A stretch of 64,000 nucleotides of DNA from an uncultured Planctomycetia bacterium. Its GTDB lineage: Bacteria; Omnitrophota; Gorgyraeia; Duberdicusellales; Duberdicusellaceae. The notes below the pieces were generated by a model. That model saw nothing but the letters and a program-made list of their open reading frames with translations. It was not told the DNA's origin and made no database searches. The stretch lies in assembly GCA_964634935.1 (NCBI GenBank), contig CAZWJT010000002.1, positions 138,643-202,642 on the forward strand. Direction: 5' to 3'. Made by a program: the position numbers and the translations under genes. Of the stretch, positions 1 through 57,220 are shown one piece after another; the first letter of the stretch is position 1; each line of letters begins with the position of its first letter.

Positions 1-552
1 AACTTTATCTTCCCCGATGACGATCTTGAGTCTCTTGATATCTTCACGCAGAGTATTTCGTTGCTCTGGGAAGAACGATTAGTCAAAGAACGCATTCGTG
101 AGCTTGACATCCGTGATCCTCTCACTGGACTTTATAGTGAACAGCATATTCATTCAGCATTCATCGCGGCAATGAATCTGGCTTTAGAACGTCATACTCC
201 CTGCGGCTTTATTCTTTTGAGGGTTTACGATTTTCAGTCAACCGATTTGGCAATACCTTCGAGAAAGGTAGAATATTCGTTAAAAAAAGTAAGTGATTTG
301 ATACTTGCTCACCTTGATATTTTTGATAAAGCTGGTCGCATTGGCGACGAACAATTTGCAATTATTGTTCCCAAAAAAAGCAAATCAGCCGTGGAGAAGA
401 AATCGTCCGATATCATCACTGACATCAATGAATTTATTTCTTCAAATACCATAGGTATCCGTTTCTCAGTGGCATCGGCGGTAGTCGAGAGTCCCATTGA
501 TGGCGTAAGTGCAGAGGAGCTTTTGCGTAAAGCGCAGCAAAATCTCCGGTAG
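1..552 (+). CDS. GGDEF-domain protein, C-terminal part (5' end lies upstream of the window); active-site motif degenerate (RIGDEQF instead of RYGGEEF)
   Basis: Frame 1 is open from base 1. The translation contains DPLTGLYSE (GGDEF domain start) and AGRIGDEQFAIIVP at the GG[DE]EF position. No RxxD I-site lies directly upstream. Stop at 550-552. Confidence 0.55.
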   Translation, partial: NFIFPDDDLESLDIFTQSISLLWEERLVKERIRELDIRDPLTGLYSEQHIHSAFIAAMNLALERHTPCGFILLRVYDFQSTDLAIPSRKVEYSLKKVSDLILAHLDIFDKAGRIGDEQFAIIVPKKSKSAVEKKSSDIITDINEFISSNTIGIRFSVASAVVESPIDGVSAEELLRKAQQNLR

Positions 553-558
553 TGTGCC

Positions 559-1005
559 ATGTATCTGAAAAGAAAAATAAATAAACCATTAGGGCAGCTT
601 TTGATTGAGCGGGGTCTTTTAACTACAGTTCAGCTAGAAAAGGCCCTGGGATTACAGCGTGAAAAAGGGGGATTGATCGGTGAGGTTATTATCTCGTTGG
701 GTTTTGTTACTGAAATAGAAATAGCCCACGCCTTGTCGCTGCAATATGGATTTCCTTATTTGCCCCTAGAGAATTACGGTATTTCACCCGAAGCTTTGGC
801 AACAATCCCGCGCCAAGTAGCAGAGCAATACTGCCTGGTTCCTCTTGATAAGGTTGGCAATACACTAATGGTCGCCACCGCTGATCCTTTAAATAGTCAT
901 GCGATCGAAGATATTGAATATTTAAGCGGATGTGCGGTGCAAATTTTTGTCAGCACGGTTTCGGATATTCGGAATGCGATCTCTAAGTACTATGCTCAAT
1001 CATAA
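559..1005 (+). CDS. Standalone MshEN / T2SSE_N domain protein (c-di-GMP-binding N-domain of GspE/MshE type, no ATPase domain)
   Basis: 148 aa. The N-terminus carries two tandem 24-aa motifs matching the MshEN c-di-GMP consensus RLGxxLLxxGLLxxxxLxxxLxxQ: PLGQLLIERGLLTTVQLEKALGLQ, a 5-aa spacer REKGG, then LIGEVIISLGFVTEIEIAHALSLQ. The rest resembles a GspE N-terminal domain (…LVPLDKVGNTLMVATADPLN…). Confidence 0.7.
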   Translation: MYLKRKINKPLGQLLIERGLLTTVQLEKALGLQREKGGLIGEVIISLGFVTEIEIAHALSLQYGFPYLPLENYGISPEALATIPRQVAEQYCLVPLDKVGNTLMVATADPLNSHAIEDIEYLSGCAVQIFVSTVSDIRNAISKYYAQS

Positions 1006-1086
1006 CGGGTGTGAAAGTTTTTTTGTATTCCGGTATTTTCCTTCCATGCCGCCGGTAACGCTTGTTCTAACGGGTGAAGATAGCAG

Positions 1087-2784
1087 ATGGATTTTAAGGA
1101 AAAAATAATTACCGCACTTGAAGAAAGTAAGATTCTCGATAAAGAAAAAATAGAAGAAATTCTTCTTCGCCACAAACAGGAAGGCGGCAGCCTCGTCGAA
1201 ACATTTATTCGCTCAGGGTACATCAACGAGACTGAATTTTTGAGTATTTTATCCGCAAGTCTTTCGATTCCATCCATCGAACTTTCAAAGATTGAAATCG
1301 CGCCTGAGATCATAGCGAGTATTCCAGCACCGTATATCTGGAAGTACAGGGTTATTCCTTTTGGAAAGATAGAAAAAACGCTTACTGTTGCAGTAATTGA
1401 TCCTTTTGAATTATTTGCTTTCGATGATTTAGAACGATTGACAGGCTTTACCTTAAATCCCGTGCTTGCTTCACGTAAAGAAATTGAGGCAGCGTTGAAT
1501 AAATATTATCGTGAGCCCGTCGCTGATGAGATGGAAACATTATTGAATACTATTCCTGAGGGCGGTTCCATTGAAGTAGTAGGGGGGGCACCGGAGGAGA
1601 AGGAAGCGGAGGTCACCGTCCAGGCAATCCAAGAGGGGCCAGTGATCAAATTAACTAATTTTTTACTTGCTCAAGCCGTACAAATGCGCGCTTCAGATGT
1701 TCTTATTGAGCCTCTTGAGAAAAAAATGAGAGTCCGCTATCGAATTGATGGTGTTCTTGAAGAAATAGAGTCTCCGCCGTTCGCTATGTTCCCGTTTATT
1801 GTTTCTCGGATTAAAGTTATGTCAAATCTTGATATTGCGGAGCATCGGCTGCCCCAAGATGGTAGATTTCGTATTAAGCAGCGCGAGAATGACATTGATT
1901 TTCGTGTTTCTATCGTTCCTTCTATTCTTGGTGAAAAAGTTGCCTTGCGCATACTTGATAAAAGTGCTGCCGCGCTCGATATCGAAAAACTCGGATTTCT
2001 TGATGAATCAATAGCGGTTATTAAGAAGATTTCTTCTCGTCCGCACGGTATGATTATTTCCTGTGGACCAACTGGATCCGGGAAGACGACAACCCTTTAT
2101 TCCATACTCAAGCATATTTATTCTCCGACAAAAAATATTATTACAGTCGAGGATCCTGTTGAGTATGAAATGAAAGGGATTAATCAGGTTAACGTGGACA
2201 CTGAAGTCGGGTTAACCTTTGCTTCTTCTCTGCGGGCTATCCTTCGGCAAGATCCCGACATCATCATGGTAGGTGAGATCAGGGATTTTGAGACCGTTGA
2301 CATCGCGATTAAAGCTGCCCTTACGGGCCATCTTGTTCTTTCAACGCTTCATACCACAACCGCTGTTGGATCGTTAATACGTCTCATCAACATGGGAATA
2401 GAACCGTTTTTGATTACTTCATCGTTAATTGGGATTATTGCTCAGCGGCTCTTGCGCAAGCTTTGTGAAAAGTGTAAAGAGCAGTATGTGGTATCAACAG
2501 TTATTCTTGATACTTTGAAGATTCGCGAGAAAAACGTACAATTTTATCGAGCGAAAGGATGCCGAGAATGCAATATGACAGGTTATCGGGGAAGGATTGG
2601 GGTTTGTGAAACATTAGCCGTGAGCGAGCAGTTGCGTGAAAAAATTCTTGCGAATGCCTCCGAGGGTGAAATTTTTGCATTAGCATGTTCACTGGGCATG
2701 AAATCATTCAAGGAAGATGCGCGCCAAAAAGTGATAAGCGGATCAACATCACTGGAAGAAGCCTTGCGGACAGTGGGGGTGTGA
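1087..2784 (+). CDS. pilB: GspE/PilB-family type IV filament assembly ATPase, paralog 1
   Basis: 565 aa. Has an N-terminal T2SSE_N domain, Walker A GPTGSGKTTT, Asp box, His box (TLHTTTAVGS) and a C-terminal tetra-Cys zinc site (CEKCKEQY…CRECNMTGYRGR). Confidence 0.85.
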   Translation: MDFKEKIITALEESKILDKEKIEEILLRHKQEGGSLVETFIRSGYINETEFLSILSASLSIPSIELSKIEIAPEIIASIPAPYIWKYRVIPFGKIEKTLTVAVIDPFELFAFDDLERLTGFTLNPVLASRKEIEAALNKYYREPVADEMETLLNTIPEGGSIEVVGGAPEEKEAEVTVQAIQEGPVIKLTNFLLAQAVQMRASDVLIEPLEKKMRVRYRIDGVLEEIESPPFAMFPFIVSRIKVMSNLDIAEHRLPQDGRFRIKQRENDIDFRVSIVPSILGEKVALRILDKSAAALDIEKLGFLDESIAVIKKISSRPHGMIISCGPTGSGKTTTLYSILKHIYSPTKNIITVEDPVEYEMKGINQVNVDTEVGLTFASSLRAILRQDPDIIMVGEIRDFETVDIAIKAALTGHLVLSTLHTTTAVGSLIRLINMGIEPFLITSSLIGIIAQRLLRKLCEKCKEQYVVSTVILDTLKIREKNVQFYRAKGCRECNMTGYRGRIGVCETLAVSEQLREKILANASEGEIFALACSLGMKSFKEDARQKVISGSTSLEEALRTVGV

Positions 2785-4472
2785 TGAAGAGTTTTAAAGA
2801 GAAGATTCGAGATTTATTGGTGGCAAAAGGAATTCAATTCCATGATGGTCTTTTAAATGACGCAAAGAATTCTAATGATCTGAAAAAGCTTCTGCTTGCG
2901 CAAAACTGGCTTACTGAAACCGAATTTCTCGGTTTTCTCTCGCAGGAGCTGGAGATTCCGTATATCGATATAAAAAAATATACCGTTTCTCCGGAAAATA
3001 CGAGTTATATTCCTGAGGACATAGCGTTTCAATATCGGGTTTTTCCGCTATCTCGGCTTAAAAATTCACTTACGATAGCAACCGCTAATCCGTTAGATGT
3101 CTTGACGCTTGATGACATAAAATTAAAGTTACAGGTTGATTTACAGCTTGTTCTTGCCAATGAGACCGATATTCTCGCTTTGCTCAATAAACTATACAAA
3201 AAAGAAGAGACATTTTCTTCGTTGCTTGCCCAGGCATCGACTGACTCGGATTTTAATGTAGCCCAAGATAAGTCTTCAGAGATTCTCGCGTCTGAAGGAT
3301 TTGACTTGCTGGCTGAAAGTAAAACGGCCCCAATCGTTAAAATCGTTGACCTCTTTGTTTATGAAGCTCTCTCCAAACGGGCGTCAGATATTCACATTGA
3401 ACCTACGGAGTTTGTTCTTAAGGTACGATATCGCATTGACGGTCTTTTGCAAGATGCTTTTGATATCCCACGGAAGAATCAGAATGCCATATTTGCCCGC
3501 TTGAAGATTATGTCGGGATTGAATATTACCGAAACGAAAATTCCACAGGACGGTCGATTTAAGGTGAAAATGCAGAGCCGGGAGGTTGATTTTAGGGTTT
3601 CGTCGTTGCCTACCCGTTACGGAGAAAAATTTGTTCTTCGGGCTCTCGATAAAAGTAACCTTTCTATAGGGCTTGACAAGCTTGGTTTTTCTGATGTCCC
3701 TCGGCAGCTCTTTGAGGCGGCGGTTAAGAAACCCTTTGGGATTATTCTCGTTACCGGACCAACTGGTAGCGGAAAGTCCACGACACTTTACTCCATTGTG
3801 AACTATTTAAATGGTGCCGATCGCCATATTGTGACCATAGAAGATCCGGTTGAATATCAAATACAGGGGTTGACCCAGATTCCTGTCAACGCTGAATTGG
3901 GATTGACTTTCGCGGCAGCTCTTCGCGCGGTACTGCGTCAATCTCCGGATATTATCATGGTTGGTGAAATCCGGGATTCCGAAACCGCCGATATTGCGAT
4001 AAAAGCTTCACTGACCGGAGAGCTTATTTTTTCGACGCTTCACACCAATGATTCCGTTGGAGCTATTATTCGGCTTGCCGATATGGGGATTGAGCCTTTT
4101 CTTTTGGCATCTTCCCTTTTGCTCACCTCTGCGCAGCGACTCTGCCGGAGGATTTGCCCTCACTGTAAGAATCCCAGTAAGCCTCCGGAGTATCTGCTCA
4201 AGAAATTGCAGATTGTTCAGCACGATGCTGTATTTTTTGAAGGGAAAGGATGTGTAGAATGCAATAATACGGGATATCACGGACGCGAAGCGCTCTTGGA
4301 AGTTTTGGCAATCGATGATACAATAAAAGAAATGATTGTGAGGCGAAAATCAGAGCAAGACATACTTGAATATGCTCGGGCAAATCTTCATTTTCGTAGT
4401 TTGCGGGAAGACGGCATTGAAAAATGCCTTCGAGGCGTAACAACCCTTGAAGAAATACTTCGGGTGACTTAG
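2784..4472 (+). CDS. pilB: GspE/PilB-family type IV filament assembly ATPase, paralog 2
   Basis: 562 aa from the ATG at 2784, which overlaps the paralog-1 stop (TGATG). Has T2SSE_N domain, Walker A GPTGSGKSTT, TLHTNDSVGA and a tetra-Cys site CPHCKNP…CVECNNTGYHGR. The ORF-track start at 2685 is an upstream in-frame extension inside paralog 1. Confidence 0.85.
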   Translation: MKSFKEKIRDLLVAKGIQFHDGLLNDAKNSNDLKKLLLAQNWLTETEFLGFLSQELEIPYIDIKKYTVSPENTSYIPEDIAFQYRVFPLSRLKNSLTIATANPLDVLTLDDIKLKLQVDLQLVLANETDILALLNKLYKKEETFSSLLAQASTDSDFNVAQDKSSEILASEGFDLLAESKTAPIVKIVDLFVYEALSKRASDIHIEPTEFVLKVRYRIDGLLQDAFDIPRKNQNAIFARLKIMSGLNITETKIPQDGRFKVKMQSREVDFRVSSLPTRYGEKFVLRALDKSNLSIGLDKLGFSDVPRQLFEAAVKKPFGIILVTGPTGSGKSTTLYSIVNYLNGADRHIVTIEDPVEYQIQGLTQIPVNAELGLTFAAALRAVLRQSPDIIMVGEIRDSETADIAIKASLTGELIFSTLHTNDSVGAIIRLADMGIEPFLLASSLLLTSAQRLCRRICPHCKNPSKPPEYLLKKLQIVQHDAVFFEGKGCVECNNTGYHGREALLEVLAIDDTIKEMIVRRKSEQDILEYARANLHFRSLREDGIEKCLRGVTTLEEILRVT

Positions 4473-4473
4473 T

Positions 4474-5679
4474 ATGGCTCTTTTTGAATATATTGCGAAA
4501 AATCAGGAAGGAAAAGTTTTTAAGGGGCGGGTGGATGAACTTTCCAAAAGCAAGGTCATTGATATACTCCACTCAAAGAACCTCGTTATTATTTCGATTA
4601 GCGATGTTAAGAAAAAACTTTTTGATTTTAAGTTTGCCCAGTCGGTAACCCCTGAAGAAATCGTCATTTTTTGCCGGCAGTTGACGACGCTCATTGATAG
4701 TGGAGTTTCATTAGTCCAGTCGGTTGAGATATTAAATGAACAAACAAAAAACCAAAAACTTCGAGAAATATTATCCCGTGTTTTAACCGATGTCCGTGAG
4801 GGAAATGCATTTCACGCATCACTTGCAAAATTTCCCGCAGTATTTTCTTCTTTCGTCCTCAGTATGATAAAAGCTGGAGAGGCATCGGGGAATCTGCCAG
4901 AAATTTTGGACAGGGTAAGCACATATCTTGAAGAATCACTTTCTTTGCAGCGCAAAGTAAAATCCAGTCTTACGTATCCCGCGGTTGTCATTTGTATGGC
5001 GATTGCTATAACTACTTTTTTGATCGTAAAAGTAATCCCGACCTTTAAAGGAATTTTTGATTCTTTGGGCGGAACCTTGCCGCTTCCTACGCAAATGCTG
5101 TTGAGTCTGAGCGATTTTTTAAGCAGATTTATTTTTCTTTTTCTTGGTATTCTGGTCGCAGCCGGAATCGCGTTCAAGCGTTATCTTCGTACGGATCGGG
5201 GAAAAAAACAATTTGATTTTTTAATTTTGAAGTTGCCTATTATCGGCGATTTATTGAGAAAAGTTGCTATTGCTCAGTTCTGCCGGACATTTTCGACTCT
5301 TGTTCGCAGCGGAGTACCCATTTTGAATACACTGGATATTGTGGGAGCAACTTCCGGCAATAAAATTATTGAAGCGGCGGTTCTTACGGCAAAAAAATCA
5401 GTTCAAGAGGGGGAGCCGCTTTCCGAGCCTCTTGCGAGGACAAACATTTTTCCGATCATGGTCACTCGTATGATTGCAATCGGAGAGAAAACAGGAAAGC
5501 TCCAGGAGATGCTTTCGCGAATCGCCGATTTTTACACTGATGAAGTCAATACTGCGGTAGAGGGTTTAACAAGTATTATTGAACCTCTGATTATCGGCAT
5601 CTTGGGTGTTGTTATCGGAGGTATTGTTATTGCACTCTTTTTGCCGATTCTGAAAATTACCGAATTGGTTGGAGCATAA
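4474..5679 (+). CDS. pilC: PilC/GspF-family inner-membrane platform protein (two T2SSF domains)
   Basis: 401 aa. Duplicated T2SSF domain pattern (…GEASGNLPEILDRV… and …IGEKTGKLQEMLSRIADFY…) with three TM segments. Starts 2 nt after the upstream ATPase stop. Confidence 0.85.
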   Translation: MALFEYIAKNQEGKVFKGRVDELSKSKVIDILHSKNLVIISISDVKKKLFDFKFAQSVTPEEIVIFCRQLTTLIDSGVSLVQSVEILNEQTKNQKLREILSRVLTDVREGNAFHASLAKFPAVFSSFVLSMIKAGEASGNLPEILDRVSTYLEESLSLQRKVKSSLTYPAVVICMAIAITTFLIVKVIPTFKGIFDSLGGTLPLPTQMLLSLSDFLSRFIFLFLGILVAAGIAFKRYLRTDRGKKQFDFLILKLPIIGDLLRKVAIAQFCRTFSTLVRSGVPILNTLDIVGATSGNKIIEAAVLTAKKSVQEGEPLSEPLARTNIFPIMVTRMIAIGEKTGKLQEMLSRIADFYTDEVNTAVEGLTSIIEPLIIGILGVVIGGIVIALFLPILKITELVGA

Positions 5680-5717: not shown

Positions 5718-8700
5718 ATGAAAAGAGTTATATTGTTTTGTTTTTTCTTATTCATTACGGCTGGTATTTCCTTTGCTGCTACCGATCGTATTATACGCTA
5801 CGGTGAGCGTGTTGAGCAGTATTATCACGCGGGTGACTATGATGCAGTAATCCAGGTATGCCAAAAGATTCTCAATATCTCAGCACAGAACAATTTTGCT
5901 CGTGACTATATCAATAAAGCCGAAACTAATAAAACTATCCAAGCGGATATCGAGCGTCTCGTGGAGAGTGATAATGTTTTACTGGCTGAAGAAAAAATCA
6001 ATTATCTTTTGCGGGAATCACCAGGTTCTCGCAAATTGCAAAAATTGGAAAAGCAAGTTGCATATGCCAAGAGTAGGCTTCAGAAAAAGCTTTCTCAGGA
6101 AATGTATGGGTTTTCAGTTGAGCGAATCCGTGCATGCATTATGGAAAAGAAATTTGCTCAAGCCCAATCATTGCTCGATGGATTGAAGAAGCGCCATCCG
6201 GAAAATGCCGAAATGCGAACACTCTCAAAAACACTTGCACAGCGCGTTGAACAAGACAAGCAGGAAAAATTCATTGCTCAGCGTTCATCAGATATCGCCA
6301 GTATCACCGAGCGTATTGATGCGGCTTTGCGCAACAATGAATTTTCCAGTGCGCGAGGTGCTCTTACCCAGCTTACCCAGGCATATCCTTCGGATTCTCT
6401 CGTGAATGCTCGCGCTGTTTCTCTTGAGCAAAAGATTAAGTTATCAGAGGCAAGCTTTCTGAAAGAAAAAGAAAGAAACGAAAAGGCTGAGTTGCTCAAA
6501 GAGCAAAAATTCACCCAAGAAATGGCGGATATCGAAACAATGATGCAAAAGGAAAACTATACCGACGCGGAACAGCGTTTGCTTATGCTCAAGAAAAATT
6601 ATCCACAGAAGGGCGCCGAAGTGGACAACCAGTTTACACAGTTGGAGCAGATTCAGAAATTATCTCGGGAGGTTAATTCCTTGCTTCTTTCAGAGTTATT
6701 TGATCAAGCTCTCGAGCGCACGCGAGTTTCACGAGAATTCTATGGTGGTAACGCGCATATTCTTGAACTTCTGAATAATTGGGACAGGAAAATAATCACT
6801 TCAAAGGTACGCGCATTAGAATCGTTAGAGAAAAGGAAAGTAGAAGAGGGGAAAAAGCAATTTTTCACCGATATCGGAACGCTGCGTATTTTGATTGATG
6901 AAAAGAAATTTGCTCAAGCCCAATCATTGCTCGATGGATTGAAGAAGCGCCATCCGGAAAATGCCGAAATGCGAACACTCTCAAAAACACTTGCACAGCG
7001 CGTTGAACAAGACAAGCAGGAAAAATTCATTGCTCAGCGTTCATCAGATATCGCCAGTATCACCGAGCGTATTGATGCGGCGATAGAAAAATCAGATTTT
7101 ACACGAGCATTCGAAGCAACGGAGGAGTTGCGCAAGAGCTATCCTGGCGATTCTTTGGTATCCAAAACGGCAATTTCTCTTGATAAAAAAATCTCTTCCC
7201 AGAGAACACGCTATCTCAGTGAGGTACAGAAGAAAGAAAGAAGCGAGCAGGAAAAGACGCTTGCGGCACAGAAAGAAGACCTACGGAATTCTACCGCGGG
7301 TATGGAGGATGCAATTCGAAAGGCTGATTTCGATGAAGCAAAAAAGATTCTATCGGGCTTAAAAGAAAGACATCCCTCAGCAAAGGAAATTCAGGAAACT
7401 GCAGTTTCTTTCGGAAATAAGATAAAGACCGCCGAAGAAGCCTTCCTGCGCAAAAACCAGCAGAAAGAAAAACAACTTTTTACTGCGACTAAAGAAAGCG
7501 ATGCATTAACGATAAGCCAAACGGTTCTCAATCATATAGAAGCAGCTGACTTTTCAGCCGCCCGCGCTGCTCTTCACAGTTATAAAGCAAAATACTTGAA
7601 AGAGCAGGATGCCCAAAAGAAAGTTTTGCTTCTTGAGGAAAAAATCAAGACAGCTGAGCATCTCCATCAGAACCAACAAGAAGAAATTCGGAAAAAATTC
7701 ACCCAAGAAATGGCGGATATCGAAACAATGATGCAAAAGGAAAACTATACCGACGCGGAACAGCGTTTGCTTATGCTCAAGAAAAATTATCCACAGAAGG
7801 GCGCCGAAGTGGAAAAGGTCCTACAAAGAGTAGAATCGGCGCTCGAAAAAGTTAAGATAGAACAGGAAAAGAAAAGTGCCGCAGAAAAACGCCGCCAGCA
7901 GGAACGAGATCTCATTTTCGCTCAGAGATTAGAAGGAATCACCACGCTTATTACACAACAGAAGTTTGCTGAGGCTAAGAATAGTTTGCTTTCGCTGCAG
8001 AAAGAGTTTCCGGAGTACCAGCAAATCAAAGAATTTTTAAAAGATATTGATTCCAGAATTCAACAGCATAATGTCGAACAAAAAAAGATTGCCGCACGCA
8101 AGGAAAACACCGAAGACAATGTCATGCAGGAGCTTGCTGTGCGCTTTAACGCTGCTTATTCAAAGAAGCAATACGTTGAAGCTCAGAATATACTCACACA
8201 CTATAAAAGTACTTTTCCCGCATACAAAAAAATTCATTCATTTACCGAAGAAAAATTTGCTTTGCTCCGAAAAGTTCGCGCTGAAGAAAATTTAAAACAG
8301 AACCTAAAAACTCAAAAATCTTTTGGTCATGCAACGTTAGCAAAGGATGAGTTGGTTGCTCAAGTCGAGGTGCTTATTCATGATGAATATTTAGCACGGA
8401 ATGATTTCGAAGGCGCGCGGATGGTCCTGGGTGAATTCGACAGTAATTTTTCCATCGATCCATATCTCGAGCAAAAAATAAAATCGATTGGACGTACGAT
8501 TAACCAAGCAGAAGAGCGCCATAAATCATTAGCAGGTATTTCGACTACGGGTTATGGCGATGAAGTTCTTGATGGGAAAATCGCGAAACTTGAAATGTTC
8601 ATTCAATTAGGCGATTTTATCAACGCCCGCAATCTTTCTGATGAACTTTTACGAACTTATCCGGAGAATATTCAAGTGAGAACCCTTGCGGAAACGTTAA

Positions 8701-8813
8701 ATCGGAAGCTCAAAAAGACACGAAAACAAGATCCAGCGCGAACGCCGATTCCTGAAAATGCGGTAAGCAAAGAAAAAAAGAATCCCCCGGCGTATCTCGA
8801 GAAACGCAGTTAA
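5718..8813 (+). CDS. Secreted 1031-aa helical repeat protein (TPR-like ~70-aa modules with recurring x-F-x-x-A-x-x-x-L-x-x-L-x-x-x-[YFH]P motif); function unknown
   Basis: Signal peptide MKRVILFCFFLFITAGISFA. K/E-rich. Recurrent module, e.g. KKFAQAQSLLDGLKKRHPENAEM, ADFDEAKKILSGLKERHPSAKEI, QKFAEAKNSLLSLQKEFPEYQQI, KQYVEAQNILTHYKSTFPAYKKI. Contains perfect internal nucleotide duplications. Confidence 0.6.
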   Translation: MKRVILFCFFLFITAGISFAATDRIIRYGERVEQYYHAGDYDAVIQVCQKILNISAQNNFARDYINKAETNKTIQADIERLVESDNVLLAEEKINYLLRESPGSRKLQKLEKQVAYAKSRLQKKLSQEMYGFSVERIRACIMEKKFAQAQSLLDGLKKRHPENAEMRTLSKTLAQRVEQDKQEKFIAQRSSDIASITERIDAALRNNEFSSARGALTQLTQAYPSDSLVNARAVSLEQKIKLSEASFLKEKERNEKAELLKEQKFTQEMADIETMMQKENYTDAEQRLLMLKKNYPQKGAEVDNQFTQLEQIQKLSREVNSLLLSELFDQALERTRVSREFYGGNAHILELLNNWDRKIITSKVRALESLEKRKVEEGKKQFFTDIGTLRILIDEKKFAQAQSLLDGLKKRHPENAEMRTLSKTLAQRVEQDKQEKFIAQRSSDIASITERIDAAIEKSDFTRAFEATEELRKSYPGDSLVSKTAISLDKKISSQRTRYLSEVQKKERSEQEKTLAAQKEDLRNSTAGMEDAIRKADFDEAKKILSGLKERHPSAKEIQETAVSFGNKIKTAEEAFLRKNQQKEKQLFTATKESDALTISQTVLNHIEAADFSAARAALHSYKAKYLKEQDAQKKVLLLEEKIKTAEHLHQNQQEEIRKKFTQEMADIETMMQKENYTDAEQRLLMLKKNYPQKGAEVEKVLQRVESALEKVKIEQEKKSAAEKRRQQERDLIFAQRLEGITTLITQQKFAEAKNSLLSLQKEFPEYQQIKEFLKDIDSRIQQHNVEQKKIAARKENTEDNVMQELAVRFNAAYSKKQYVEAQNILTHYKSTFPAYKKIHSFTEEKFALLRKVRAEENLKQNLKTQKSFGHATLAKDELVAQVEVLIHDEYLARNDFEGARMVLGEFDSNFSIDPYLEQKIKSIGRTINQAEERHKSLAGISTTGYGDEVLDGKIAKLEMFIQLGDFINARNLSDELLRTYPENIQVRTLAETLNRKLKKTRKQDPARTPIPENAVSKEKKNPPAYLEKRS
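6144..6325 (+). repeat. 182-bp perfect direct repeat, copy 1 (copy 2 at 6900-7081), in frame within the repeat-protein gene
   Basis: I read the two stretches as base-for-base identical (gaaaagaaatttgctcaagcccaatcattgctcgatgg … gagcgtattgatgcggc). They encode the identical peptide EKKFAQAQSLLDGLKKRHPENAEMRTLSKTLAQRVEQDKQEKFIAQRSSDIASITERIDAA. Confidence 0.85.
6505..6625 (+). repeat. 121-bp perfect direct repeat, copy 1 (copy 2 at 7693-7813), in frame within the repeat-protein gene
   Basis: Identical run aaaaattcacccaagaaatggcggatatcgaaacaatgatgcaaaagg … gggcgccgaagtgga. Encodes KFTQEMADIETMMQKENYTDAEQRLLMLKKNYPQKGAEV twice. Confidence 0.85.
6900..7081 (+). repeat. 182-bp perfect direct repeat, copy 2
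   Basis: Identical to 6144-6325 by my reading. Confidence 0.85.
7693..7813 (+). repeat. 121-bp perfect direct repeat, copy 2
   Basis: Identical to 6505-6625 by my reading. Confidence 0.85.
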
Positions 8814-8826
8814 ATAGTGTGAACAG

Positions 8827-10059
8827 ATGATTCGGAATATTAAAATACTTGCGATGATTATGGCTGGCGGCAGAGGAGAGCGTCTTTATCCTTTGACTTT
8901 AGACCGAACGAAGCCTTCTGTCCCTTTTGCCGGTAAGTACCGGATTATTGATTTTGTGCTCAGTAATTTTATTAATTCGGGAATATATTCAATTTATGTT
9001 TTAGTCCAGTATAAATCGCAATCACTTATTGAACATATTCGCAGTGGATGGAAGCGGCAGGGGATGCTTTCGAGTCATTTCATTACGGTCGTTCCTCCTC
9101 AGATGCGGCGGGGACAGAAGGAGTGGTATCGGGGAACAGCCGACTCAATTTATCAGAATATCAACCTTATTCTTGATTTTAAACCTGATTTAGTCGCTGT
9201 TTTCGGAGGCGATCATATCTATCGAATGAACATTAATGATATGATACACGCGCATATAACAAAAAAAGCTGACGTTACGGTAGCCTGTATGCCATGTTGT
9301 AAAGAGCAAGCTGGGGCTTTTGGGATTGTCGATATTGATGCGAATGCGATGGTCAAGAGATTTCGCGAAAAACCGAAAAATCTCAGTCTGATCCGAGGAC
9401 AAGAAGTTTTCATCTCGATGGGAAATTATATTTTTTCAACGAATGCGTTGATTGAATCGTTACGTGCGGATGATGCATACAAAAATTCTTCCCATGATTT
9501 TGGGAAAGATGTGATTCCTTCCCTTGTTGCACAAAAAAAACGTGTATTTTCATACGATTTTTCGAAAAATAAAGTCCCGGGCTTAAAGCCCTATGAAAAG
9601 AAGGAATATTGGCAAGACGTTGGGACGATTAAAAGTTTCTGGCAATCGAATATGGAAATACTTGGAGAAAACCCGGTGTTCGATCTCGACAATCGGCAAT
9701 GGCCAATCTATGCATCATCGCTTGATTGTCCGCCAGCAAAAATAGTGAAAAGTGAAATTGTAAATTCTTGTCTTGCAGAAGGATGCATTTTATCCAATGC
9801 ATTCGTCAAAAATTCTATCTTGGGAAGATCGGTCATTCTTGAGGCCGATGTTGAAATTGAAAACTCGATCATTATGGATTTTTGTCTTATCAAGAAAGGA
9901 GCAAAAATCCGCAACGCAATTATTGACCGTTTCAACGTGATTCCCGCTCATACTCGGATCGGTTATAACCGACTTCAGGATGCCCGCGCGTATCATTACG
10001 ATGTTGAATCGGGCATTGTTGTTGTAAAGCGCGGAGCCCGCCAGGTATTGTATTGGTAA
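8827..10059 (+). CDS. glgC: Glucose-1-phosphate adenylyltransferase
   Basis: N-terminal AMIMAGGRGERLYPLTLDRTKPSVPFAGKYRIIDFVLSNFINSGI (nucleotidyltransferase G-loop and GlgC signature). C-terminal left-handed beta-helix region. 410 aa. Confidence 0.85.
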   Translation: MIRNIKILAMIMAGGRGERLYPLTLDRTKPSVPFAGKYRIIDFVLSNFINSGIYSIYVLVQYKSQSLIEHIRSGWKRQGMLSSHFITVVPPQMRRGQKEWYRGTADSIYQNINLILDFKPDLVAVFGGDHIYRMNINDMIHAHITKKADVTVACMPCCKEQAGAFGIVDIDANAMVKRFREKPKNLSLIRGQEVFISMGNYIFSTNALIESLRADDAYKNSSHDFGKDVIPSLVAQKKRVFSYDFSKNKVPGLKPYEKKEYWQDVGTIKSFWQSNMEILGENPVFDLDNRQWPIYASSLDCPPAKIVKSEIVNSCLAEGCILSNAFVKNSILGRSVILEADVEIENSIIMDFCLIKKGAKIRNAIIDRFNVIPAHTRIGYNRLQDARAYHYDVESGIVVVKRGARQVLYW

Positions 10060-10077
10060 TTTGTTTTTGTATCTTCA

Positions 10078-11955
10078 ATGCGGAAACGAACAAGTGAGTT
10101 TGATGTCATTGTTGTAGGAGCAGGCCATGCGGGCATTGAAGCAGCTTCTGCTGTTTCGCGCCTGAAGTGTTCCGTGCTTCTTATCACAATGAGCATTGAT
10201 AACATCGGAAAAATATCCTGTAATCCTGCGGTTGGCGGGGTTGCAAAATCGCACTTGGTCCGGGAGGTAGATATTTTCGGCGGAGCCATCGCTCGGCTTG
10301 CTGATTTGTCCGCAACCCAATATCGAGTGTTGAATCAGAGTAAAGGTAAAGCGGTCTGGGCTCTGCGCGTTCAAATCGACCGCCACCTGTATAATCGCCA
10401 GGCAAAAGATCTCATCCTGTCCTTGCCCAATCTCCGCGTATTTGAAACTGAGGTAGAAGAAATTTTGACGCTGAGAAACAGAGTATACGGGGTGTTAACT
10501 CAAGCAGGGGAATTTTTTTCATCTCGGGTTATTCTCTGTCCCGGAACATTTCTTGATGGACTCGTACATATCGGTTTTCGGCATTTTCCTCAAGGACGAT
10601 TAGGAGAGCCAGCTTCACAGGGTCTTTTTCGCTCTCTAAAAAAACACGGATTTTTACTGAAACATTTTAAAACCGGCACATGTCCACGGATAGATTTCCG
10701 CACGCTTGATTTTTCCCGGATGAACGAACAAAAGCCAGATTATCAAGCGGGTCCGTTTTCGATATATACCGATGGCATTCCAAATAATCAGTTGAGTTGT
10801 TTTATTACCGCTACGAATCAAAAAACACACGCGCTTGTAAAACGTAATTTGCGGTATTCTCCTCTTTACCAAGGCATTATTAAGGGTACAAGCGTGCGTT
10901 ACTGTCCTTCATTGGAGGATAAGGTAGTGAAGTTTGACGCACGAAAAAGCCATCATGTTTTCATTGAGCCAGAAGGTTTTTCTACATTTGAAGCCTACCC
11001 GAACGGCATTTCGAATTCTCTTCCATTTGATGTGCAATGTGAGCTTGTTCACTCCATTCCAGGCATGGAGAAGGCAACTATCCTAAAACCCGGATACGGG
11101 ATAGAACATGCGGTCATTGATGCCCGCGTGCTCTATCCAACTCTTGAAGCAAAAAAAATCCGAGGCCTCTTTTTTGCCGGGCAGATCAACGGAACAACTG
11201 GATATGAAGAGGCAGCAGCTCAGGGGTTAGTTGCAGGGGTAAACGCTGCTTTGCAGATTCATAAAAAACCGCCTTTTATTTTGGGTCGCCGTGAAAGCTT
11301 TATTGGTCTTTTGATTGATGAACTTATTGAAAAAGGCACCAATGAACCATACCGAATGTTTACCTCGCGCTCCGAACTACGGATGACACTAAGAGAAAGT
11401 AATGCTGACAGGCGACTGTATCGCATGTCTTTTCAATACGGACTTATTGACGAAAAAATATTTCATCGAATTGCTGAGAAGGAAAAAAGAATTCAGGAGT
11501 CAATACGGCAGTTAAAAACCATCAAGATTCATCCAACGCCAGACGTAAACCAAAAACTTCTCCAACTCAACACAAGTTCAATTCATCAAACTATTTGTCT
11601 TGGTGATCTATTGAAGCGGCCGCAAATCGTTTTTTCCCACCTTTCCCATTTTTCCTATATTTCTAAGCTTACTCCCCGGGAAGAAGATGAGGTTGAGATT
11701 GAGATTAAATACGAAGGGTTTTTAAAGCGGGAATTACATCAACTCGCAGAACTGAAAGATTTGGATCGGGTAAAATTGCCGTATATTCCTCAAGTTTCCG
11801 GGCTTTCTCGTGAAATTATTGAAAAGCTTAAAACTTTTCAGCCTAGAACAATCGGACAGGCTCTGCAAATTCCCGGATTCACCGTTGCCGCAGCGCTCAT
11901 TCTTCTTAATTATTTTCGCTCAAAAAAACATTCCAAACAATCCCTGGAAAAATAA
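10078..11955 (+). CDS. mnmG: tRNA uridine 5-carboxymethylaminomethyl modification enzyme MnmG (GidA)
   Basis: FDVIVVGAGHAGIEAA FAD-binding motif, 625 aa, MnmG-typical length and conserved blocks (…GPRYCPSIEDK-like SVRYCPSLEDKVVKF…). Confidence 0.9.
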   Translation: MRKRTSEFDVIVVGAGHAGIEAASAVSRLKCSVLLITMSIDNIGKISCNPAVGGVAKSHLVREVDIFGGAIARLADLSATQYRVLNQSKGKAVWALRVQIDRHLYNRQAKDLILSLPNLRVFETEVEEILTLRNRVYGVLTQAGEFFSSRVILCPGTFLDGLVHIGFRHFPQGRLGEPASQGLFRSLKKHGFLLKHFKTGTCPRIDFRTLDFSRMNEQKPDYQAGPFSIYTDGIPNNQLSCFITATNQKTHALVKRNLRYSPLYQGIIKGTSVRYCPSLEDKVVKFDARKSHHVFIEPEGFSTFEAYPNGISNSLPFDVQCELVHSIPGMEKATILKPGYGIEHAVIDARVLYPTLEAKKIRGLFFAGQINGTTGYEEAAAQGLVAGVNAALQIHKKPPFILGRRESFIGLLIDELIEKGTNEPYRMFTSRSELRMTLRESNADRRLYRMSFQYGLIDEKIFHRIAEKEKRIQESIRQLKTIKIHPTPDVNQKLLQLNTSSIHQTICLGDLLKRPQIVFSHLSHFSYISKLTPREEDEVEIEIKYEGFLKRELHQLAELKDLDRVKLPYIPQVSGLSREIIEKLKTFQPRTIGQALQIPGFTVAAALILLNYFRSKKHSKQSLEK

Positions 11956-11968
11956 AAACATTTTACTC

Positions 11969-13090
11969 TTACGCTTGAGCTAAAGTGATAATTTCTTGGG
12001 CAGTGCGCATGCAGGCGTTTTCTGGAAGGAGTTCTTTTCGGAGATCGTGAAGCGCACCACGCAGAGCGGCGGTTTGCTGATGATCACTCAACAAACTGCA
12101 TGCTTTCTGGGCGATACGCTCAGGAGTCGCATCATTTTGAATGAACTCCGGAAATATATTTTTTTGTGCGATGATATTTGGCATGGCAATAAAGGGCACA
12201 CGAACGAGAAATTTCAAAATGTGCCAGCTCAGCGCATTGAGTTTGTAGAATACAATGGAGGGAACACCTAAGATTGCCAATTCCATAGTGACGGTGCCAG
12301 ATGCAGTAAGCGCAAGATCGCATGCCTTCATGTGTTCGTAATGACGGGTCGGGATGCAAACAGTATCGTTTGCTTTTAATATTGAGAATAATTCATCAGG
12401 AAGTTGTGGATGCTGGAAGACTATAAACCGGGCGCGAATTTTTTTTGCGATAATTTCTTTGGCAGCATGCAGCATCGGAAGATGATGTATCACCTCTTTT
12501 TTCCGAGATCCGGGTAGAAGTCCGATAACTTTTTCATCCGAAGCTAGCGACAGGGTTTTCTTTATTTCCGATACGTCAGCTGATGTCGGGAGTATTTCAA
12601 GTAAGGGATGGCCGACATAGACAACGGATATTTTGGCCTCCCGGTAGAGTTTTTCTTCAAACGGGAAAATAACCGCGATTTTGTCCACATATCTTTTAAT
12701 CTGGATGATCCTTTTTTTACGCCAAGCCCAAACCTGTGGGCTGATAAAATAGAATACCTTATATCCTTTTTTCTTGAGAATTTTACTTAGGCGTAAGTTA
12801 AAATCAGGGTAATCAACCAAAACAACAACGCTTGGTTTTATTTCATCGATCGACTTTGTGATCGAATGAAATGCTGCAAGAACTTTATGAATATAGCGTC
12901 CGACTTCCCAGATCCCTGTTACCGCAAGGGCAGTGAGTGGAAAGACACAATGCGTTGCTTGCTCAAGATGGTTCCCTCCGGCGGAGAAGATTCCGATGTC
13001 TGGTTTGATGGTTTTTAAGTGCGTTGCCACTCGGGCAGCATAGAGGTCGCCCGATGGATCACCCGCGACAAAAAAGACAGAATCAGACAT
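11969..13090 (-). CDS. lpxB: Lipid-A-disaccharide synthase
   Basis: 373 aa. N-terminus MSDSVFFVAGDPSGDLYAARVATHLK matches the LpxB start (…AGEPSGD…). GT-B fold pattern throughout. Confidence 0.85.
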   Translation of the reverse strand: MSDSVFFVAGDPSGDLYAARVATHLKTIKPDIGIFSAGGNHLEQATHCVFPLTALAVTGIWEVGRYIHKVLAAFHSITKSIDEIKPSVVVLVDYPDFNLRLSKILKKKGYKVFYFISPQVWAWRKKRIIQIKRYVDKIAVIFPFEEKLYREAKISVVYVGHPLLEILPTSADVSEIKKTLSLASDEKVIGLLPGSRKKEVIHHLPMLHAAKEIIAKKIRARFIVFQHPQLPDELFSILKANDTVCIPTRHYEHMKACDLALTASGTVTMELAILGVPSIVFYKLNALSWHILKFLVRVPFIAMPNIIAQKNIFPEFIQNDATPERIAQKACSLLSDHQQTAALRGALHDLRKELLPENACMRTAQEIITLAQA

Positions 13091-14006
13091 GCGTTTTTGC
13101 GATGTTACGGTCTATTTCCAGGGCAATACGCAAAGCATCAAGTATCGCTTCGGTTTGTGAAAAATCAGGATCCTTTTTTTCAGATTCGGAAAGAAATGCA
13201 GCAATTTCTTCCTTTAAGGGTTCGTCTTTCGGGATGTCAAGCCGCTGCTGTACGATGCCGGCATCGGTTTTCGTGAAGATTTCGGCTTCTTGCTTCGCGT
13301 AATTGACTGAGATATAAGTTTTAGGAAGAAAAATGCGAATCTTGCGCAGTGAATCCCGGGATATTCGGGAAGCGGAAATGTCAGCAATGCAGCCGTTTTG
13401 GAATGAAATCCGCGCATTCGCAATGTCGGTTGTATTCGAAAGCACCTGGACTCCTACCGCATCGATCCGTTTTACTTTTGATTGGACAAGCGACAAAATA
13501 ATATCCAGATCGTGGATCATAAGATCCAATACGACACTGATATCAAGTGAGCGATTTGGAAAGGGACTCAGTCGGTCGCATTCGATAAACTTTGGTTTTT
13601 TAGCGATCTCGCGGATGCGTTTGAATGCCGGATTGAATCGTTCAACGTGCCCAACCATTAACACAACTCGATTTTTTTTTGCCAGATTGAGCAAAATACG
13701 TGCGTTGCTAAGGTTGTTGCTTAGGGGTTTTTCTACTAAGCAATTCACGCGGTGACTGAGAAAAAAACGAGCTATCGGAAAATGGAGCAAGGTGGGAGTA
13801 GCAATACTGATTGCATCGGGTTTCAGCTTCATTAGCTCTTGATAATTTGTTGTGGCGAGAGCGATGTTTGGGAAGAGACACTTTAGTTCACTGAGTCGAT
13901 TTATGTCTGTGTCACAAATACCGACGATTTCTGCATTCGGCAACGCAGCGTAAATTTTGGTATGAAGAGAACCAAGTTTTCCGAGACCAACTATCGCGAC
14001 TCTCAT
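13083..14006 (-). CDS. Gfo/Idh/MocA-family NAD-dependent oxidoreductase, possibly GnnA-like (UDP-GlcNAc 3-dehydrogenase of the GlcN3N lipid A pathway)
   Basis: MRVAIVGLGKLGSLHTKIYAALPNAEIVGICD Rossmann N-terminus and a Gfo/Idh/MocA C-domain. Overlaps the lpxB start by 8 nt (same operon). The GnnA call is a context inference only. Confidence 0.5.
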   Translation of the reverse strand: MRVAIVGLGKLGSLHTKIYAALPNAEIVGICDTDINRLSELKCLFPNIALATTNYQELMKLKPDAISIATPTLLHFPIARFFLSHRVNCLVEKPLSNNLSNARILLNLAKKNRVVLMVGHVERFNPAFKRIREIAKKPKFIECDRLSPFPNRSLDISVVLDLMIHDLDIILSLVQSKVKRIDAVGVQVLSNTTDIANARISFQNGCIADISASRISRDSLRKIRIFLPKTYISVNYAKQEAEIFTKTDAGIVQQRLDIPKDEPLKEEIAAFLSESEKKDPDFSQTEAILDALRIALEIDRNIAKTHV

Positions 14007-14041
14007 TTTTTTTAAAATATCGCTATTATCTTATCAAAACC

Positions 14042-14070
14042 TTGTGCAATGTCAAACCATCTGGTATAAT
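14042..14070 (+). promoter_or_regulatory. Candidate sigma70-type promoter for msbA: -35 TTGTGC (14042-14047), 14-bp spacer, extended -10 TGgTATAAT (14062-14070)
   Basis: Lies in the divergent intergenic region between the Gfo/Idh/MocA gene (-) and msbA (+). -10 hexamer TATAAT at 14065-14070 preceded by TG at 14062-14063; the 14-bp spacer (14048-14061) is well short of the 17-bp sigma70 optimum, which weakens the call. Confidence 0.3.
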
Positions 14071-14129
14071 TGCGCATACAAAATAAAATCTTAAAAGCCG
14101 CAATTTCCTAAAATATCGTTGAGCATTAT

Positions 14130-15941
14130 ATGAATAACTATTTAAAGCTTTTGCGATTTATCCACAGCTATAAATCCCTTTTTATTTTTGCGTTTCTGTG
14201 CATGGGGGTTTCGACTCTTTTTGATGGCGTAAGCATGGGAATGATCATTCCGGTTGCTGATAAAATATTAACCAACAAGCATATTATTCTTCCGCGCGGT
14301 CTTCCTTCGGTGATCCAGGATTTTGTTGCATACCTCAACAGTTTCGATCCCCTCACTCTTCTGTACGGGAGTGTTGTTTTTTTGCTTATTCTTTTCATTC
14401 TGAAAGGAATTATTCTTTTTATTCAAGGGTACCTTATGAATTTTATTGCACAATCGGTTGTCCGGGACGTGCGAGAAAAGATTTTTTCAAAACTTCAGGA
14501 ATTATCGTTGGATTTTTATTCAACCGCCCGGACGGGCGAACTTATTTCCAGGGTTACGAATGATGCCGGAATTCTCAGCAACGCACTTTCCTACGGAATC
14601 ACAGATCTTATTTATCAGTCAATGCAGGTTGTTCTTTTTACGACGGTCGCTGTTATTATTAATTGGAAACTTGCGTTCTTAACCTTGGTTGTTTTTCCGG
14701 CGATTATTTATCCGATTGTCCGCGTGGGGCGAAAATTAAAAAAACTTTCGCGTACCACCCAAGAACGGATGGCAGATTTGAATATTATTCTTTCGGAAAC
14801 GATTTCGGGAGTGCGCATTGTCAAGGGATTTTCTCAGGAATCTGCCGAAGTGGGGCGTTTTAAACGGAGCAATAACGAGTATTTCCGATTTACCATGAAA
14901 TCGATAAAGCGTACCTTGCTGTTATCTCCGGTTACAGAATTCATCGGTGTTATCGCCGCGGTTATTATATTTTTAATCGGCGGCAGAGATGTCATTGAAG
15001 GTCGGCTTTCTTTCGGTGTTTTTGGCTTCTTCTTCGGGGCGCTTATGTCTATGGTCCGTCCGTTCAAGAAGCTCTCGCAAGTGCATGCGATTAATCAGCA
15101 GGCAATTGCCGCTTCCGAGCGTATCTACACAATCCTGGAGCAAAAGCCGACGGTTGTCGACCATCACGGGTCACTCGCAATACGCGCGCCCACAAATACA
15201 ATTCGCTTCGAGGATATCTGGTTTCGCTATAACCAGAAAGAGGATTTAATTCTTCGTGGCGTTTCGTTTGAAGCTCGCATCGGCCAAACGATTGCGTTGG
15301 TTGGCTCAAGCGGAAGCGGTAAGTCTACTCTCGTAAATCTTATTCCCAGATTTTATGATCCTGACAAAGGGCGTGTTCTTTTTGATGATTTTGATATACG
15401 CCATGCTACGACAAAATCCCTACGCGCGTTTATGGGGATCGTGACTCAAGAAACAGTTCTATTTAACGAAACTGTTGCGTCAAATATCGCTTACGGCAAA
15501 CCTACCGCCTTGCCAGAAGAGATTTATGCTGCGGCTCGAAAAGCTCTTGCGCATGATTTTATTGAGCGTCTTCCCAAGAAGTACGATACGGTCATTGGGG
15601 ATCGTGGTTTTCGGCTCTCTGGCGGAGAAAAACAGCGTATTTGCATCGCACGTGCTATTATTCGCAATCCCGCAATTTTAATCCTTGATGAGGCTACTTC
15701 GCAGCTCGATACAGAATCTGAGCGTATTGTTCAATCGGCTTTGGAGAATGCCATGAAGGACCGGACTGTTTTTGTTATTGCCCATCGCCTGTCAACCGTG
15801 GTAAATGCTTCAAAGATTTTATTAATTCAGAATGGGGCTATTGCTGCAAGCGGAACACATAACGAGTTGCTAAGAAACAACGGTTTTTATCGGAATTTAT
15901 ATGACCGGCAATTTGAGGCAAAGGAGCAAAAAAATATTTGA
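14130..15941 (+). CDS. msbA: ABC transporter permease/ATPase, MsbA-like lipid A/lipid exporter
   Basis: 603 aa. Six-TM N-domain plus NBD with Walker A GSSGSGKST, ABC signature LSGGEKQRICIARAI and Walker B ILILDEATS. Divergently placed next to lpxB. Confidence 0.75.
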   Translation: MNNYLKLLRFIHSYKSLFIFAFLCMGVSTLFDGVSMGMIIPVADKILTNKHIILPRGLPSVIQDFVAYLNSFDPLTLLYGSVVFLLILFILKGIILFIQGYLMNFIAQSVVRDVREKIFSKLQELSLDFYSTARTGELISRVTNDAGILSNALSYGITDLIYQSMQVVLFTTVAVIINWKLAFLTLVVFPAIIYPIVRVGRKLKKLSRTTQERMADLNIILSETISGVRIVKGFSQESAEVGRFKRSNNEYFRFTMKSIKRTLLLSPVTEFIGVIAAVIIFLIGGRDVIEGRLSFGVFGFFFGALMSMVRPFKKLSQVHAINQQAIAASERIYTILEQKPTVVDHHGSLAIRAPTNTIRFEDIWFRYNQKEDLILRGVSFEARIGQTIALVGSSGSGKSTLVNLIPRFYDPDKGRVLFDDFDIRHATTKSLRAFMGIVTQETVLFNETVASNIAYGKPTALPEEIYAAARKALAHDFIERLPKKYDTVIGDRGFRLSGGEKQRICIARAIIRNPAILILDEATSQLDTESERIVQSALENAMKDRTVFVIAHRLSTVVNASKILLIQNGAIAASGTHNELLRNNGFYRNLYDRQFEAKEQKNI

Positions 15942-16034
15942 AATAAAATAGAACTGTGTTATACTTAATATCTTTAAAAAGTCTGCATTACGCAGAAAAT
16001 AACAGGCGATAACGATTATAAACAGGAGGTTACG

Positions 16035-16874: not shown

Positions 16875-16880
16875 GGAGGC

Positions 16881-18114: not shown

Positions 18115-18124
18115 GAGGAGCAGT

Positions 18125-18697: not shown

Positions 18698-18777
18698 GCC
18701 GCGGTGGCGGAATTGGCAGACGCGCATGGCTTAGAACCATGTCCGTGAGGGTGGGAGTTCAAATCTCCCCCGCGGCA
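18698..18777 (+). tRNA. tRNA-Leu (anticodon TAG), long variable arm
   Basis: Acceptor stem GCCGCGG/CCGCGGC. Anticodon stem CATGG / loop CTTAGAA / CCATG. Long variable arm. T-arm GGGAGTTCAAATCTCCC. CCA not encoded. Confidence 0.8.
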
Positions 18778-18780
18778 CAT

Positions 18781-18807
18781 AAAGATACCACTTTACCTGG
18801 TATCTTT
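18781..18807 (+). other. Perfect 10-bp-stem hairpin (AAAGATACCA-ctttacc-TGGTATCTTT) between tRNA-Leu and tRNA-Cys
   Basis: Inverted repeat read directly from the sequence. Possible processing or termination signal in the tRNA spacer. Confidence 0.4.
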
Positions 18808-57219: not shown

Positions 57220-57220
57220 C

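Follow-up and report, generated by a model that had tools for sequence, protein, structure and literature searches.

A 64,000-nucleotide stretch of contig CAZWJT010000002.1 from an uncultured Planctomycetia bacterium (the window) carries, after a pilC gene, an open reading frame (ORF) here called X that encodes an exported array of spaced tetratricopeptide repeat (TPR) modules and contains two pairs of perfect direct repeats, tracts A and B (Table 1). The reading that we favor, with about an even chance of being right, is that X serves in the periplasm as a structural accessory to the type IV filament machine whose genes lie upstream, a free-standing counterpart of the TPR array of secretins of the Planctomycetes-Verrucomicrobia-Chlamydiae (PVC) type, and that its gene has undergone two recent gene conversions. 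X would be exported by Sec as an all-α protein acting in the periplasm, where it would partner the machine whose GAF-GGDEF, MshEN, PilB1, PilB2, and PilC proteins are encoded upstream. It would be the free-standing equivalent of the N-terminal array that some PVC-type secretins carry covalently, and may form an elongated spacer or docking surface linking the outer-membrane channel with the inner-membrane platform. The tie to the filament machine in the periplasm is drawn because a conserved gene neighborhood and the fusion of putatively homologous arrays to secretins agree. We infer the periplasmic location, the partnership with a secretin, the gene conversion, and the length variability of X from the sequence.

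The X gene starts with an ATG that has an AGGAGG ribosome-binding site 6–7 nt 5' of it. The signal peptide proposed for X in the original prediction is borne out by an MKR start, a hydrophobic core, and the terminal SFA/A (the slash marks the predicted cleavage site), after which the mature chain opens with ATD. This peptide is the sole hydrophobic segment of the protein, and no lipobox was found in it (...AGISFA/ATD), with no Cys at +1. Mature X comprises 1011 residues with a mass of 117 kDa and an isoelectric point (pI) of 9.1, and a 1031-aa protein identical to X is present in a public NCBI assembly.

X has hardly any relatives in the databases searched. In a word-indexed homology search of 5.8 billion clustered proteins, full-length X matches itself alone, an N-terminal profile of X finds one fragment, and the array of the secretin P0007, described below, finds near-identical copies only; in word-index searches with arrays of this type, the candidate list fills up through low-complexity K/E words. 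When 1.84 billion representative proteins were searched exhaustively with phmmer, X had 7 matches, with the self-match alone below 1e-10. Searches of NCBIfam (E ≤0.01) and of PDB sequences gave zero matches, and nothing was found with X in scans of GTDB genomes or of metagenomes. The window PilC has its best match in the GTDB scans at 48% identity in a Planctomycetia metagenome-assembled genome, where pilC is followed by pilS/pilR and pilins and no X. A PilC profile recovered 44 metagenome loci, among which only L006 and L008 are close, and the others have no X-like ORF.

The link to filament machinery, suggested originally from the position of the gene, was strengthened by finding the order pilB-pilB-pilC-X on a second, diverged contig as well as X-like arrays fused to secretins. 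The 3,370-bp metagenome contig L006 has at its cut end P0002, an 85-aa fragment that is 39% identical to X residues 2–79 and has the same ISFA end to its signal peptide. Directly before P0002 lies a PilC 62% identical to the window PilC; the L006 PilB is 68% identical to ATPase 2 of the window, and the C-terminus of a second ATPase is 55% identical to ATPase 1 compared with 45% to ATPase 2. The gene order pilB1-pilB2-pilC-X is conserved between these two genomes, and conservation of neighborhood, taken as a mark of membership in the type IV filament machine, is seen for X on both. X evolves much faster than its neighbors: its identity of 39% on L006 compares with 62–68% for PilC and PilB2.

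Two of the phmmer matches, P0005 and P0007, are secretins in which a signal peptide is followed by ~700 aa of spaced modules resembling those of X and then by STN, Secretin_N, and Secretin domains. The alignment of X with P0007 is colinear over 447 columns and runs from the signal peptide as far as residue ~430 (24% identity, pairwise E 4e-9). The best NCBIfam match of P0007 is the Amuc_1098 family, under its cutoff, and the gene upstream of P0007 gives weak PilN and Amuc_1101 PilM-like matches. P0005 and P0007 are ~75% identical in the channel half and ~25–30% identical in the array, which shows whole-module indels. No DNA repeats of at least 25 nt were found in either array, and the perfect tracts are therefore peculiar to X. 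The family to which these two secretins belong appears to be uncharacterized and rare. The remaining long matches, P0003 and P0004, are unrelated multi-module TPR proteins, the modules of P0003 being tandem and near-identical. A short metagenome scaffold (L007, positions 1–1104) carries X-like modules distributed over two reading frames with an N gap; this is probably a homologue that was mis-assembled or carries frameshifts, and illustrates how difficult arrays of this kind are to assemble.

The divergence of X relative to PilC and PilB2 would also suit a protein that is secreted or displayed on the cell surface as cargo or as an adhesin, such as the substrate of a machine like the type II secretion system (T2SS), and that diversifying selection drives to evolve fast. 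Surface proteins typically undergo intragenic recombination, a fully extended X chain would surpass the usual periplasmic width, and the two ATPases and PilC, none of which reaches an equivalog cutoff for the type IV pilus (T4P) or T2SS, score about equally as components of either. However, the putatively homologous arrays are fused N-terminally to secretins, the N-terminus of which faces the periplasm, and neither Pfam nor NCBIfam reveals a cell-surface anchoring or adhesin domain in X, making a cargo or adhesin role fairly unlikely.

The array of X consists of fifteen modules, with helix-B starts spaced 46–81 aa apart. The degenerate modules of ~70 aa that had been predicted are thereby confirmed, as a module hidden Markov model (HMM) trained on 13 of them recovers 15 of 15. 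Within each module, TPR helix A leads into helix B, which is 14 aa long; a [YFH]-P turn and a capping helix come next, the latter continuing as a charged helical spacer of 0–29 aa toward the following hairpin. Aligned on the short helix, the pattern is ...hxxhxxhh-xx[DN]-[FY]xxAxxxLxxLxxx-[YFH]Pxx-xxhxxhxxhxxKI. All 15 hairpins match [FY]xxAxxxLxxLxxx[YFH]P, each corresponding to one canonical 34-residue TPR hairpin plus the capping helix. In 11 of 12 spacers, 45–71% of the residues are E/K/R/D/Q, and hydrophobic residues make up 10–27%; this charged and hydrophobic-poor composition indicates that the spacer forms a single helix exposed to solvent and no coiled coil. Pfam assigns X to generic TPR families only (summed over the protein, TPR_19 with 51.3 bits and a cutoff of 25, TPR_14 with 47.1 and 23.5, and TPR_6 with 28.9 and 26.3). 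The 34-residue helix-turn-helix of the TPR clan is seen in the Pfam scores, in the 15 hairpins, and in the hairpins of the AlphaFold2 model, whereas the continuous superhelix of at least three adjacent repeats is not formed by hairpins at the spacing found in X. By comparison with these spaced repeats, a 798-aa protein encoded at 33542–36598 of the window, just upstream of a MotA/TolQ/ExbB-type channel gene, is a classical contiguous-TPR protein.

AlphaFold2 predicts full-length X to be all helix with a predicted local distance difference test (pLDDT) score of 65. Residues 105–335, modeled from the single sequence without an alignment, reach a pLDDT of 91.9, with helices of 37–51 aa alternating with 14-aa helices. 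For this fragment, Foldseek gave local matches to BamD, BepA, PilF, and BcsC with TM-scores of 0.16–0.24 and a best E of 0.04. The modeled X is locally TPR-like and globally unlike compact TPR superhelices, with a predicted shape that is an elongated long-short-long helix zig-zag. Every module would add ~28 helical residues to the chain, or roughly 4 nm in length, and a straight X molecule would therefore far exceed the width of the periplasm. The fold matches could be taken to mean that X is a general periplasmic envelope TPR protein (BamD-, BepA-, or YbgF-like) placed after pilC incidentally, in a region packed with co-directional unrelated genes. This is unlikely, since the matches are weak and unaccompanied by any NCBIfam match, the four-gene order is kept on the diverged contig, and secretin fusions account for two of the four long matches in 1.84 billion proteins.

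Ordinary pairs of X modules, compared in a fixed 49-aa register, have a median identity of 14% at the amino acid level and 35% at the nucleotide level (maximum 33% and 46%), in agreement with the divergence that had been claimed for the flanking modules, and the array appears ancient and saturated. Against this background, the copies of tract A are 100% identical over 182 nt with not one further base matching on either side, and those of tract B are 100% identical over 121 nt (124 nt at 99% when one mismatch is allowed). On realignment the coordinates and the perfect identity given in the original prediction both held, neither pair of copies falling below 100%. The copies are spaced by 756 bp for A and 1188 bp for B, equal to 252 and 396 codons, so that both duplications are in frame, and they encode identical peptides of 61 aa (residues 143–203 and 395–455) and 39 aa (residues 264–302 and 660–698), respectively. 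In ungapped 30-nt windows, flank identity is 13–33% to the left of both tracts and to the right of B, and 30–63% to the right of A. Other direct or inverted repeats of at least 35 nt were not found in the 64 kb, save for a Gly-codon low-complexity run near 58.1 kb, and chance cannot yield exact 182- and 121-nt matches within this length.

The two copies of each tract begin at an equal position within the module. Tract A reaches from 3 residues ahead of helix B to where the following helix A ends, tract B spans one TPR hairpin, and the copies are interleaved in the order A..B..A'..B'. The module pairs with above-background similarity are those carrying the tracts, m3/m7 and m5/m11, together with m4/m8. 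In the fixed register m4/m8 share 55% of their amino acids, partly because 12 of the residues belong to tract A. Outside tract A, 20 of 59 residues are identical in this pair and 9 of these 20 keep the codon, compared with complete codon identity inside tracts A and B, a contrast that bears out the earlier claim of very recent events. The raised similarity of m4 and m8 suggests an older exchange between these regions.

Each tract would thus represent a very recent non-reciprocal transfer, kept in register, between modules that lie 4 units (A) or 6 units (B) from each other, the recency being indicated by the low identity of ordinary modules next to tract codons that are all identical. Where unequal crossover or gene conversion had both been proposed, gene conversion with short tracts in register gives the better fit. 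Simple unequal crossover fits poorly because the tracts are far shorter than their spacings and their copies are interleaved; a simple tandem duplication was rejected on the same grounds. A foreign insertion was also rejected, as the tracts encode module-consistent sequence in register. In the proposed course of events, one recent conversion would have copied 182 bp between modules 3–4 and 7–8 of an ancient, diverged array, and another would have copied 121 bp between modules 5 and 11.

Sharp-edged identical segments in a variable gene resemble donor and acceptor cassettes, and the tracts might be ascribed to programmed diversification through a diversity-generating retroelement or cassette-based antigenic variation. 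Such an origin is hardly credible, because the copies are 100% identical without adenine-specific differences, both lie within the same expressed ORF, no reverse transcriptase or dedicated recombinase was found in the window or 7.2 kb upstream, and the one integrase-family gene is Xer-like and 36 kb away. X as the target of a diversity-generating retroelement was rejected on the identity of the copies and on there being no reverse transcriptase among the annotated ORFs of the window or of the contig L053, introduced below.

An assembly artefact could produce all or part of this repeat structure if similar segments had been collapsed to one graph edge or inter-repeat segments mis-ordered. The source, whose proteins are singletons, seems to be a metagenome-type assembly, and the related array on L007 was assembled with frameshifts and an N gap. 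The layout A..B..A'..B' permits a second Eulerian path, in which 6326–6504 is swapped with 7082–7692 at equal length and frame; the earlier caution on mis-assembly is valid in this respect, and we reason that the swapped path is equally compatible with the k-mer graph. On the other side stands the Logan k=31 assembly of SRR12133403, in which the 10,712-bp contig L052 is 100% identical to window 7784–18495 and has its left end 30 nt (k-1) short of where tract B' stops. The opening 30-mer of L052 is found at both 6596 and 7784, and the opening 31-mer at 7784 alone, the expected signature of a true read-graph branch at the right edge of B. The break indicates that the reads hold two continuations after the shared B sequence and that at least the right boundary of tract B', the one boundary covered by this comparison, is present in the raw reads. 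A second Logan contig, L053, equals window 1–5411 without mismatch and ends at a G5 run in pilC and not at a repeat; the stop at this GGGGG run is probably due to coverage or a sequencing error. The linker from B to A' (6626–6899) is unique, in frame, and module-like, so that some genome has a B...A' junction. An assembler does not create repeats out of nothing, and a collapse would still need near-identical copies in place of the 35% background. It is distinctly unlikely that the repeats are, wholly or in part, a product of assembly.

Once formed by conversion, the perfect direct repeats may serve as substrates for RecA-type recombination, which would remove or double a stretch of 252 or 396 residues by whole modules, with the frame kept. 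The minimal length for efficient RecA-dependent recombination is ~25–30 bp, and since the 182- and 121-bp repeats exceed it, variation in the length of X between strains is plausible. Deletion would give products of 779 or 635 aa, and unequal exchange would give longer ones. For genome assembly, the tracts flag a site of possible short-read mis-ordering or collapse.

Several observations weigh against X as a converted periplasmic partner of the filament machine. The synteny comes from one other contig, L006, which is cut after 85 aa of the X homologue. The similarity of X to the secretin arrays is low, at 24–27% identity, with whole-library E values of 3.4e-5 for P0005 and 6.2e-4 for P0007. 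No secretin, pilin, or PilMNOP gene was found in the 64-kb window or 7.2 kb upstream, so that this region holds no candidate partner of X. X is followed on the same strand by the unrelated genes glgC, after 13 bp, and mnmG, with no evident terminator, and adjacency in this genome alone is therefore weak evidence for a shared function. RecA-type conversion is hard to start between sequences that are otherwise 35–50% identical, and short-read graph collapse or polishing could partly account for the perfect identity of the tracts.

Among characterized proteins, the closest parallel to the fused arrays is Akkermansia PilQ (Amuc_1098). According to Ottman et al. 2016 (PMC4960237), this protein combines an N-terminal TPR region, given as just three contiguous TPRs, with a C-terminal secretin domain and has homologues in Verrucomicrobia and Lentisphaera. 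X shares with the TPR-array secretins (Amuc_1098/NF042912, P0005, and P0007) a signal peptide followed at once by TPR-type modules, a link to type IV filament genes, and fast-evolving arrays with whole-module indels, and it shares with P0005 and P0007 the module type and a spacing of 60–75 aa. In contrast to P0005 and P0007, X has no STN, Secretin_N, or Secretin (PF00263) match in Pfam or NCBIfam. Its 15 modules compare with at least 6 detected in their ~700-aa arrays. X does not match NF042912, and it is encoded after pilB-pilB-pilC and not with pilM/N-like genes. X would accordingly be placed, from its sequence, as an unusual spaced-TPR variant of the TPR accessories and extensions of type IV filament secretins, almost without relatives.

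The pilotins PilF, PilW, Tgl, and TadD are likewise exported TPR proteins and serve type IV filament secretins, and Pseudomonas aeruginosa PilF (2ho1) is a local fold match to X with a TM-score of only 0.21. Pilotins are, however, lipoproteins of ~250 aa with ~6 contiguous TPRs, whereas X is four times longer and has single spaced TPRs. A lipoprotein pilotin identity was rejected for X on its length of 1031 aa, the missing lipobox Cys, and the lack of a family HMM match. A FimV/HubP-type polar organizer was also rejected, as X has no LysM or FimV match, its only hydrophobic segment is the signal peptide, and its pI is 9.1. Exopolysaccharide export offers a further parallel, in which a periplasmic TPR array is either free-standing (AlgK with AlgE) or fused N-terminally to the outer-membrane channel (BcsC, PelB, and PgaA), as with X and the secretin arrays. 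There the channel is a β-barrel porin instead of a secretin, the arrays are contiguous TPR superhelices, and as no synthase genes lie beside X the parallel is an analogy only. Elsewhere in the window, positions 61755–63071 encode an AlgE-like outer-membrane porin (Pfam Alginate_exp) that has a hybrid histidine kinase on one side and a response regulator on the other; there is no nearby polysaccharide synthase. With α C/Rib surface proteins and P0003, X has in common perfect or near-perfect in-frame DNA repeats in a modular gene that permit recombinational length change. Those repeats are adjacent whole units, whereas in X the copies are interleaved, the distance of 4 and 6 modules between them exceeds the tract length, and the array around them is otherwise saturated and diverged.

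The genes preceding X (window 61–5679, L053 6438–12626) form a compact c-di-GMP-linked cassette in which both PilB/GspE-type ATPases carry MshEN. The complete 443-aa GAF-GGDEF gene is visible on L053, and the stand-alone MshEN-domain protein matches the NCBIfam c-di-GMP motif NF053729 with 56.6 bits (cutoff 38). ATPase 1 scores 607 with PilB TIGR02538 and 583 with GspE, both under the equivalog cutoffs. The mechanical ORF of ATPase 2 starts at 2685, overlapping ATPase 1 by 100 bp. The true start is probably the ATG at 2784, which overlaps the ATPase 1 stop, and the 562-aa product from this ATG is exactly on record in Logan. The gap between pilC and X is 38 bp. A rubredoxin and a flavodiiron protein encoded upstream suggest an anaerobe, and lpxB, lpxK, and kdtA show a diderm cell envelope. 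Two unusual fusions are encoded in the lipopolysaccharide-core region at 47681–51660, one joining a lipid A acyltransferase to an Elm1-like domain and the other a GT4 glycosyltransferase to a GT9 heptosyltransferase. Four tRNA genes after frr (18698–19142) are the sole Rfam match in the window. A 602-aa protein encoded at 57098–58906 has FliG middle and C-terminal domains and a Gly-rich N-terminal half encoded by GGA/GGC-rich low-complexity DNA (58094–58198), and besides this ORF no flagellar genes were seen in the window.

Table 1. Features of X, of the genes preceding it, and of two secretins with similar arrays (window coordinates unless a contig is named)
Feature	Coordinates	Strand	Evidence
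X, exported array of spaced single-TPR modules, 1031 aa	5718..8813	+	ORF, Pfam, phmmer, module HMM, AlphaFold2
Sec signal peptide of X, MKRVILFCFFLFITAGISFA/A	5718..5777	+	read from sequence; same ...ISFA/ motif in homologue P0002
Fifteen-module array of X	5787..8711	+	module register, identity matrix, HMM count, spacer composition, AlphaFold2 helix pattern
Module cores 1–5	5787–5933, 5925–6071, 6102–6248, 6291–6437, 6507–6653	+	
Module cores 6–10	6645–6791, 6858–7004, 7047–7193, 7278–7424, 7500–7646	+	
Module cores 11–15	7695–7841, 7914–8060, 8121–8267, 8355–8501, 8565–8711	+	
Tract A, copy 1 (module 3 helix B to module 4 helix A; aa 143–203)	6144..6325	+	
Tract A, copy 2, A' (module 7 to module 8; aa 395–455)	6900..7081	+	
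Tract B, copy 1 (module 5 TPR hairpin; aa 263–303)	6505..6625	+	
Tract B, copy 2, B' (module 11 TPR hairpin; aa 659–699)	7693..7813	+	
Basic, Pro-containing C-terminal tail of X (aa 999–1031), predicted disordered	8712..8810	+	pLDDT <50 for aa 1003–1031
C-terminal GGDEF part of GAF-GGDEF diguanylate cyclase; gene begins upstream of window	61..552	+	Pfam GGDEF 53 bits
Stand-alone MshEN-domain protein (148 aa), predicted c-di-GMP receptor	559..1005	+	Pfam MshEN 70 bits
PilB/GspE-type assembly ATPase 1, MshEN N-domain	1087..2784	+	T2SSE 449 bits
PilB/GspE-type assembly ATPase 2	2784..4472	+	T2SSE 437 bits
PilC/GspF platform protein	4474..5679	+	T2SSF 224 bits, two domains
P0007, secretin with N-terminal spaced-TPR array, 1162 aa	L004 2834–6322		
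P0005, secretin with N-terminal spaced-TPR array, 1290 aa	L005 74–3946		

The duplications are otherwise a modest curiosity, and the wider interest lies in the kind of protein that carries them. Although modeled with confidence (pLDDT 92, no alignment used), the fragment matches no PDB structure globally, and a rod of spaced TPRs may be of interest to the field of repeat-protein structure. If X is a periplasmic accessory of the filament machine, it would define the TPR extension of PVC-type pilus secretins, which has been little studied, in a free-standing form, with a signature in sequence of a signal peptide followed by single TPR hairpins 46–81 aa apart on charged helices. The resulting split-versus-fused architecture would parallel that of AlgK/AlgE relative to BcsC and PgaA. 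A further, very doubtful extension is that X belongs to a new class of modular periplasmic spacers, built as chains of single TPR hairpins on rigid charged helices, that was split off the secretin and whose length is reset by the loss or gain of 4 or 6 modules through recombination between the homogenized tracts; if true, the geometry and reach of an envelope complex would change in whole-module steps, giving rise to variation of the machine at the level of strains or populations.

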